Shown here: positions 36,001 through 39,000 of the stretch, in pieces
How the letters are laid out: each line of letters starts with the position of its first letter
How positions within the stretch are numbered: position 1 is the first letter of the stretch
Source: Escherichia coli
GTDB lineage: Bacteria; Pseudomonadota; Gammaproteobacteria; Enterobacterales; Enterobacteriaceae
Assembly (NCBI RefSeq): GCF_001677475.2
Contig: NZ_CP015229.1
DNA length: 64,000 bases
Strand: one strand, 5' to 3'
Program-made: the position numbers

Positions 36001-39000
36001 ATGCTTTTAAATGGAAGTTCGCAACATGAGTGGTGGTGTCGAATGCTTCAGTGATCTGGTTGCTCGGGTTATTCACTTCGACCAGATTCAGTGCGCCAGT
36101 ATTATTTACATGGTGCAGAGCGATATCGACATTACCAGCTGGATCCTGAACTGAGCCATCATTACTCAAAGTACCCTGGTTAGAGTTATGGTACATAGAA
36201 CTGAAACTCATGACTGCGTTTTGAGCCGTTGCATTACCTGTCGCACAATCAACTTTAATATTAATATCTTCCGGGAATCCACCTGCAGCAGTTTTGCTCA
36301 TTGCCGGGACATCAGCAATTTGTGCAGTCTGTAGCATAACCGTAACGTCTTTACCGCCACCATTTATTGTCGTTACACAAGTACCAGCGGTAACAAAACC
36401 ACCGATATTCAACTGCCCACCGTCAACACCAGCCATTACTGAAACGGCTGAAAGGGAAGATGCTGCTAATACGATGGCAAGTAGCTTTTTGTTCATTAAA
36501 ATTCTCCATAAAAAAAGAGAGACGAATCAATAACAAATATTAATTTATTGTTATTCTACGTCTTCCAAAAACGCGGCAGAGACTAGCAATATAAGGATGA
36601 AAATAAAAATTGATGGTGTGAATGATTTGGGGTGATTTATTGATTTACCTTCCCTTGCATTCATCATTTGAATAGCTATTTATTTTAGAGCAAGCGGTTA
36701 GGTGAGTATAAGAGTGTTTATAAGGGTGGTTTGATTTGTAACTCATTGATTTTTTTAATTTTATTATTTTTCTTGTGATTGATTGTAGTGTGTCATTTTT
36801 ATTATATATATATTTTAGTGTGTCATTTTGTATGCATTAGTTTTTCTGTATTTACATATTAGATTATCTTAATATAAAGTTTAATATTATTAATATATAC
36901 GTTAATTTTCATGTGTTTTTTTTGCCCATTTGTGCCTTTCTTGGGGGAATCTCACTTTTTTTTGATCTTAATTATCTAAAAGAAGAAAGGAATTTTAACC
37001 ATAAAGATTATGACTGGCATATCAGAGGCAAGAACCAGATTACTGATGCGTATTTCACTACGCATACTAGCTTGAATAATTAGAAAGGGGAGGGTGATTA
37101 CCAGCGTGGTAAGGGACAAGAAGCATTGCTCGTTAATAAACTTTGCAATGTCTCTCCATCAGGGAAAATTAATTCCGGCGCAATCTCAAACAGCGGCCAC
37201 AGCATAAATCCACGATTTTTCATATCGTAGTGCGGAACGGTCAGGCGCTCGGTGTTAATCACCTGATTGCCAAACAACATAATGTCTAAATCGAGCGTGC
37301 GCGGCCCCCAGCGTTCGGCTTTACGGACGCGACCTTGCTGCAATTCAATACGCTGTGTGTGATTGAGTAACTCTTCGGGCGCGAGTGCGGTTTCCAGCGC
37401 CACGGCGGCGTTGAGGTAATCAGGTTGATCCTGCGGCCCCAGCGGTGGAGTGCGGTAAAACGAAGAAACGGCAAGAATGCAGCTTTCAGGGATATCACCG
37501 ATTGCTTTCACGGCAGCATTGACCTGCTCCAGTGGAGAGGCCAGATTGCTGCCTATGGCAATATACGCCACTGTCATGCGGTGCCCTCACGACGCGGCGC
37601 GCGTTTGCGTGGGCGACGAGTACGACGACGCGTTGACGGTTCCTCGTCCAGTTCGTTAAGCATCCCTTTTTGATCTGGTGGCGCGGAAACCTGGAACTCC
37701 CCCCACCATTTCACCAGACGCTGCAGTTCAGCGTTACGTTCAACTTCAGCTCGCAAGGCCAACAGGTCATAAGCCGCACGGAACTTAGGATGCTCCAGCA
37801 GTTTCCATGCGCGTTTACCCTGACGTCGGGACATACGCAACTGCAACTGCCAGATATCGCGGGTTAACGTCGTCAGACGTTTCGGGATTGCCAGTGAACG
37901 GCAGGCTTCGTCCAGCACGTCGTTCATCGCCAGCGCGAAAGCGTCGTGATAGGTCAGGCCACTCTCCTGAGCGATCTTCTGTGCCGTCTCCAGCAGCGGA
38001 TACCAGAACATGGCGGCAAACAAGAACGCCGGGTTCACACGCATATCGTTATGGATACGCGTGTCGGTATTCTTCAGTACCTGCTCAATAATGCGCTCCA
38101 TCGGACTGTCGCCATTTTCCGTGAAGTAACGGGTAATGGTCGGGAACAGCGGCTGGAACAGATGATATTCACACAGCAGTTTATAGGTTTCGTAACCGTA
38201 TCCCGCTTGTAGCAGTTTAAGAGACTCTTCAAACAGGCGTGCCGGAGGAATATCGTTCAATAAGGTAGCGAGGCGGGGGATCGGTTCTGCGGTTTCTGGG
38301 CTGATGCGCATCCCCAGTTTTGCAGCAAAACGTACCGCGCGCAGCATCCGTACCGGATCTTCACGGTAGCGCGTTTCCGGATTACCAATCAGACGGATAA
38401 CGCCGTCTTTCAGATCCTTCATGCCGCCAACGTAATCGCGAACGGTAAAATCCGCGACGCTGTAATACAGGCTGTTGATAGTGAAATCGCGGCGCTGGGC
38501 GTCTTCTTCGATGGAACCGAAAATGTTGTCGCGTAGCAACATGCCGTTTTGCCCGCGTTGGGAGGTTGTGCGGTCGCTGACGTTACCTTCGTGGTGTCCA
38601 CGGAAGGTTGCGACTTCGATAATCTCCGGGCCAAACATCACATGAGCAAGACGGAAACGGCGACCCACCAGGCGGCAGTTACGGAATAGTTTACGCACCT
38701 GCTCAGGCGTAGCGTTGGTGGTCACGTCAAAATCTTTCGGCTTTTTGCCAAGTAACAGGTCGCGCACGCCGCCGCCAACCAGCCAGGCTTCGTATCCCGC
38801 TTTATTGAGCCTGTACATTACCTTCAGGGCATTTTCACTGATATCTTTGCGGGAGATAGCATGTTGCTCACGCGGGATCACCGTCACCTGGGGACGGGCG
38901 GCAGCCTGTTCAGCCTCGCTTTCCTCGCGGCTTAGCACCTTGCGGCAAAAATTAGCGACTCGGGTAAAAATAGTACACCTCGGTAGTGTCAAACATCATT

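Follow-up and report, generated by a model that had tools for sequence, protein, structure and literature searches.

At which codon is translation of pcnB, the gene for poly(A) polymerase I (PAP I), initiated in the 64,000-nucleotide stretch of Escherichia coli DNA analyzed here (contig NZ_CP015229.1 of assembly GCF_001677475.2; hereafter the window)? The longest open reading frame (ORF) of the pcnB frame, 37574..38992 on the minus strand, encodes 472 amino acids with a TTG as its first codon. A preliminary description of the window had stated that the ORF track opens pcnB at this TTG but that the native N-terminus corresponds to an ATT codon further in. Direct reading of the minus strand together with the ORF list confirms the former statement, and the latter is borne out by an initiation region identical to that of E. 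coli K-12, by comparative evidence and by the 465-amino-acid form in RefSeq. We conclude that pcnB in the window would be translated from this AUU, positioned by a GAGGUG Shine-Dalgarno sequence, to yield a 465-residue product, a reading to which we assign a probability of about 0.93.

The AUU start of pcnB is already known and ordinary for the gene, which has been a standard example beside infC since 2002. Four reports (PMC2939334, PMC3561954, PMC5499595 and 10.1101/063800) describe AUU initiation of pcnB in K-12, all citing Binns & Masters 2002, and according to 10.1101/063800, PMC5499595 and PMC4245954 confirmed AUU initiation is limited, on the E. coli chromosome, to pcnB and infC. Phylogenetic evidence has suggested AUU starts for the PAP I homologues of many Proteobacteria as well (PMC3561954). 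That the literature holds the AUU start to lower the level of PAP I, as the preliminary description had claimed, agrees with the papers citing Binns & Masters 2002; limitation of PAP I synthesis by AUU is described in PMC2939334, PMC3561954 and PMC4447247. The enzyme is present at about 30-50 molecules per cell, and in excess it polyadenylates mature tRNAs, with lethal effect (PMC3561954). Our literature search returned no paper reporting the pcnB start from initiation-site ribosome profiling. Only two observations made here are mildly new, namely the synonymous-site conservation over positions -11 to +29 and the in-frame ATG at codon -7 in Salmonella.

Locus and gene product

Across the start, the pcnB frame reads TTG ACA CTA CCG AGG TGT ACT ATT TTT ACC CGA GTC GCT AAT TTT TGC CGC AAG, with ATT directly preceding the conserved N-terminal residues of PcnB (MFTRV when ATT is taken as Met). 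From ATT to the end of the stop codon the coding sequence measures 1398 nt. The features of the region are collected in Table 1.

Table 1. Features of the pcnB start region in the window, with the energy of pairing to the 3' end of 16S rRNA where it was computed.
Feature	Coordinates	Strand	Pairing (kcal/mol)	Basis or remark
pcnB CDS as properly annotated (poly(A) polymerase I)	37574..38971	-		465 codons + stop; RefSeq length, NF008634, Pfam
ATT (AUU) initiation codon (+1)	38969..38971	-	-7.2	80/80 species; RefSeq CDS start; pairing among the best 2% of random 20-mers of the window
Shine-Dalgarno GAGGTG, 4 nt 5' of ATT	38976..38981	-	-7.2	80/80 species, fixed spacing
Conserved initiation-region block, -11 to +29	38943..38982	-		Per-column counts; low synonymous diversity in codons 1-9
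In-frame TTG, codon -7; opens the longest ORF, not the start	38990..38992	-	+0.4	No Shine-Dalgarno; 26/80 species
In-frame TGA closing the frame upstream, two codons before TTG	38996..38998	-		Sequence read
GTG, codon 12; internal Val codon, start in many database entries	38936..38938	-	+0.5	No Shine-Dalgarno
First in-frame ATG, codon 52	38816..38818	-	-3.9	SD-like GAAGG directly adjoining, no spacer before ATG
Sigma-70-like promoter TTCTCA-17 nt-TATGAT, overlapping the gluQRS end	39023..39051	-		9/12 matches

By equivalog score, by alignment from residue 1 and by its three Pfam domains, the predicted product is PcnB, that is, poly(A) polymerase I. Against the NCBIfam equivalog NF008634 the protein scores 993.3 bits (cut-off 702), and its residues 1-464 cover profile positions 1-468 of 469. 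The alignment with curated PcnB that the preliminary description had named as a check thus places profile position 1 on residue 1 of the ATT-started protein. PolyA_pol (PF01743), PolyA_pol_RNAbd (PF12627) and PolyA_pol_arg_C (PF12626) are all found well above their gathering scores, and the CCA-adding models score far below their own cut-offs on PcnB. Over residues 28-442, the printed alignment to the E. coli PAP I crystal chains 3AQK-3AQN shows no difference; because these chains span residues 28-442 only, they are uninformative on the start.

According to the ORF list, folK lies downstream of pcnB, and gluQRS and dksA lie upstream. In E. coli, pcnB and folK overlap by 4 nt. Two database proteins, P0029 (630 aa) and P0114 (584 aa), consist of PcnB fused to the folK product (HPPK domain PF01288), and given this overlap they are probably read-through artefacts or frameshifts at the junction. 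A second gene at the locus also has a longest ORF that overshoots its annotated start: gluQRS (39031-39957, minus strand) runs to 308 aa from an ATG at 39957, compared with 298 aa (897 nt) in RefSeq E. coli.

Conservation of the start region

From the gluQRS stop to position +63, the initiation region is base-for-base identical to that of E. coli K-12. Over 3.1-3.5 kb, the pcnB locus is 98.7% identical to CP089930.1 (E. coli E69). For K-12 and a second E. coli strain the value is 94.6-95.0% (a divergence of about 5%), and for E. albertii, E. whittamii and one further Escherichia it is 91-93%. These identities, 98.7% to E69 and about 95% to typical E. coli, therefore place the locus in a lineage of Escherichia at some remove from typical E. 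coli; they suggest that the window may derive from a divergent Escherichia lineage rather than from E. coli in the strict sense. Relative to the K-12 protein, PcnB here differs at two residues, Val24 to Ala and Pro to Thr near the C terminus.

RefSeq carries a 1398-nt pcnB CDS starting at the same ATT in three E. coli strains, K-12 included. The 63 nt around the start are identical in 5416 of 5424 complete E. coli genomes, and a perfect-match search with the 63-nt sequence carrying ATG in place of ATT found no instance among the complete E. coli genomes searched. The one variant inspected carries a C to T change at -2, within the spacer, which would turn codon -1 from Thr to Ile.

We compared 80 Enterobacteriaceae loci, one genome per species, at 86-100% protein identity. 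All 80 have ATT at the pcnB start, and all 80 have GAGGTG exactly 4 nt 5' of it. Together with the near-uniform E. coli genomes, this shows that the agreement with the RefSeq start is no coincidence. The arrangement GAGGTG-N4-ATT is also kept in two more distant Enterobacterales homologues (62% and 67% protein identity), the range of ATT outside the Enterobacteriaceae being expressed here by percent protein identity only. The upstream in-frame stop lies between -5 and -59 codons from ATT, depending on the species. In 43 of the 80 species, no ATG, GTG or TTG occurs between that stop and ATT, and residues 2-11 are still invariant.

The pattern of substitution changes sharply at the same codon. 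From +4 to +33, variation among the 80 species is confined to +9, +18, +24, +30 and +33, and all five sites are third-position and synonymous. On the other side, positions -4 to -1 vary freely, so that a putative codon -1 would specify Thr, Asn, Ala, Pro or Ile, and upstream of -11 variation is free and includes indels. With synonymous change only from +4 onward, and non-synonymous change and indels upstream, ATT is thus exactly where coding constraint sets in. The more distant loci L083 and L084 likewise keep the frame, with the conservative changes Ala to Ser, Thr to Ser and Val to Ile.

At still greater distance, homologues with 42-54% identity have a called ATG or GTG start followed by a similar short basic-hydrophobic N-terminal segment, about as far from the catalytic domain as in PcnB here. 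The GTG and ATG starts of homologues at about 49% identity suggest that ATT may be the derived state of a conserved N-terminus. A second homologue search, using an N-terminal fragment as query, returned mostly truncated fragments and added nothing.

Ribosome-binding signals

As a crude measure of Shine-Dalgarno strength, we computed the duplex energy between the 20 nt upstream of each candidate codon and the 3' end of 16S rRNA (Table 1). The GAGGTG sequence serves ATT and neither the TTG at codon -7 nor the GTG at codon 12. By this simple duplex measure GAGGTG is a good site, contrary to secondary sources, among them PMC3561954, in which the pcnB ribosome binding site is termed ‘poor’.

Starts assigned in the databases

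The starts of database proteins were surveyed in the best 120 clusters at 90% identity. Of these, 51 start at ATT (MFTRV), and every row checked among them has an NCBI source. A further 14 are extended upstream to a TTG or ATG, ten of them beginning MTLPRC, and 55 start downstream, mostly with MLSREE from the GTG at codon 12; most of the downstream-starting clusters occur only in ENA, Logan or JGI, and a few also in NCBI. With 55 downstream and 14 upstream starts, truncation of the protein is therefore a more frequent error than any other, the TTG extension included. The preliminary description had called this a place where automated gene callers typically misplace the start. Many entries are indeed wrong, but the usual error is truncation, and NCBI is correct in E. 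coli. For annotation, the value of the present result is that the correct product would be the 465-residue form started at ATT, and not the 472-residue TTG or 454-residue GTG forms that fill the databases.

In Salmonella enterica (the diarizonae and arizonae representatives, L022 and L024, positions 1480-1503), codon -7 is ATG, compared with TTG in Escherichia. Two of the ten MTLPRC clusters start from an ATG at codon -7 (MTLPRCAI), including a large Salmonella cluster, P0013 (NCBI-named, 472 aa, 2921 member sequences), whose protein begins MTLPRCAIFTRV... No Shine-Dalgarno precedes the Salmonella ATG, and GAGGTG-N4-ATT is intact downstream of it. The 472-aa Salmonella form may be a systematic mis-annotation, or it may be a real longer isoform.

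In the more distant locus L084 (CP043324.1), pcnB is called as two pieces within 601-2098, one of 316 aa from an upstream TTG and then one of 150 aa, a split that indicates a frameshift, a pseudogene or an assembly error.

Alternative starts

TTG is a canonical bacterial start codon. The one at codon -7 is in frame, lies two codons past the upstream stop, recurs in 26 of the 80 species (with ATG there in Salmonella) and heads the 472-residue protein of the longest ORF and of some database records; 14 of the 120 clusters are extended upstream, though not all from a TTG. We nevertheless consider initiation there highly improbable. The codon has no Shine-Dalgarno sequence, its pairing energy being no better than 85% of random sites, and the 43 species described above have no canonical start anywhere in the upstream frame. 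A single inserted nucleotide in Kosakonia oryzendophytica (L061) shifts TTG out of frame, and an in-frame TGA stands there instead. If the upstream stretch were translated, its last codon, -1, would be the one that varies among five amino acids and that carries Thr to Ile in an E. coli strain, while the next 11 residues are invariant; and GAGGTG, which would then fall within coding sequence, is invariant as a nucleotide motif at a fixed distance from ATT. The TTG-opened ORF would accordingly not mark the true pcnB start, and the AUU start is supported by K-12 identity, by the comparative evidence and by the curated model. If the promoter-like site at 39023..39051 is used, the TTG at codon -7 probably lies inside the transcript, and low-level initiation may occur there.

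Initiation at the GTG of codon 12 would yield the 454-residue MLSREE protein and make the conserved 33 nt upstream of it a regulatory 5' UTR. This GTG is present in 80/80 species, many of the 55 downstream-starting clusters begin at it, and a UTR element could also produce a block from -11 to +29 conserved beyond the need of the protein. The nature of the variation nevertheless argues for translation of these nucleotides: read in the ATT frame, the variable sites from +4 to +33 are without exception third-position and synonymous (5/5), and the replacements in L083 and L084 keep that frame and are conservative. Moreover, no Shine-Dalgarno sequence lies within usable distance of GTG 12, the N-terminal segment is part of the curated PcnB model NF008634, more distant homologues have a comparable segment after their called ATG or GTG, and PMC2939334 and PMC3561954 report AUU. 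We regard this start, too, as very improbable. An additional, shorter isoform from the first AUG, at codon 52, expressed from the internal sigma-S promoter pS1, is compatible with the AUU start, and we consider it quite unlikely. In its favor, PMC2939334 describes pS1, downstream of AUU, as active in vitro and in vivo under special conditions and notes two bands in anti-PAP I western blots; the ATG, which is probably the downstream ATG labelled ‘+1(b)’ in that paper, is preceded by GAAGG, and codons 36-48 just upstream of it have the second-lowest synonymous diversity in pcnB. Against it, there is essentially no spacer between GAAGG and the ATG, and the authors of PMC2939334 themselves call the shorter isoform unproven. 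Codons 36-48 (38828-38866, minus strand) fall broadly within the stretch, 3' of the start codon, to which PMC2939334 assigns pS1 and the possible second start.

The conserved initiation block

Around the AUU start, a block of 40 nt from -11 to +29 is strongly conserved in the 80 species, with variable positions inside it at -4 to -1, +9, +18 and +24. Codons 1-9 contain 0.7% non-majority codons, the lowest value in pcnB, against a gene-wide window median of 29%. A similar pattern occurs in dksA, where codons 2-10 (about 40422-40448, minus strand; 250-280 of L001) have a synonymous diversity of 0.2%, against 17% over codons 11-120, among 60 species. No suppression of 5' synonymous diversity was found in gluQRS or folK at the same loci.

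RNAalifold proposed a conserved hairpin in which the Shine-Dalgarno sequence pairs with +6..+11 and AUU lies in the loop. All of its paired columns are invariant and provide no covariation, and its energy of -4.7 kcal/mol is no better than that of shuffled sequences (z = -0.40; 62 of 200 shuffles as good). A search of 38600-39300 against Rfam found no family at E <= 1. With no supported hairpin and no Rfam match, we therefore take the conservation as strong selection on the initiation region, a specific element not being demonstrated. That the block is a specific cis-acting RNA element controlling PAP I dosage, either as the site of a regulator or as a feature that makes AUU usable or tunable, appears unlikely.

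Promoters and an antisense ORF

The promoter scan reported one site of the type TTCTCA-17-TATGAT, against 0.3 expected, and many of the 80 species retain the TATGAT block. This site is probably the published pB promoter, from which the leader would measure about 45 nt. A perfect -35 hexamer, TTGACA at 38992-38987, was considered as an internal promoter and rejected: only 14 nt separate it from the best -10-like hexamer downstream, and no promoter was reported at this place by the scan. Also rejected was an antisense ORF of 102 codons across the start region (38715..39023, plus strand), which stop codons break in 63 of the 80 species and which is so not a conserved gene.

Discussion

Taken together, the data support a model in which AUU would be read by the initiator tRNA as fMet, positioned by the GAGGUG Shine-Dalgarno sequence 4 nt upstream. 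IF3 discriminates against a near-cognate AUU in the P site. AUU would be expected to initiate far less efficiently than AUG, so that a cell contains only a few tens of PAP I molecules, a scarcity that matters because excess PAP I is toxic. Initiation of pcnB would then depend on IF3 and may vary with IF3 availability. The weak codon would thereby form part of how the Enterobacteriaceae keep poly(A) polymerase I scarce.

The closest known system is pcnB of K-12 itself (b0143; Binns & Masters 2002, Mol Microbiol 44:1287), which is the same gene in the same synteny, dksA-gluQRS-pcnB-folK, with the same ATT and GAGGTG. The initiation region shows no differences between the two, and the locus as a whole has diverged by about 5% at the DNA level. 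In Enterococcus faecalis, a rare ATT start attenuates expression of ebpA, and that gene, too, was mis-annotated at another codon (PMC4447247). The gene and the organism are unrelated to those studied here, and the annotated start of ebpA was a downstream ATG, 120 bp away (PMC4447247). Another parallel is infC, which encodes IF3 and has an AUU start like pcnB, the weak codon limiting expression in both genes (PMC4447247). In infC, the gene's own product, IF3, is the discriminator, and this closes a feedback loop. To our knowledge PAP I has no role in start-codon selection and, because of this, pcnB, unlike infC, would receive no feedback through its own product and would be throttled rather than autoregulated.
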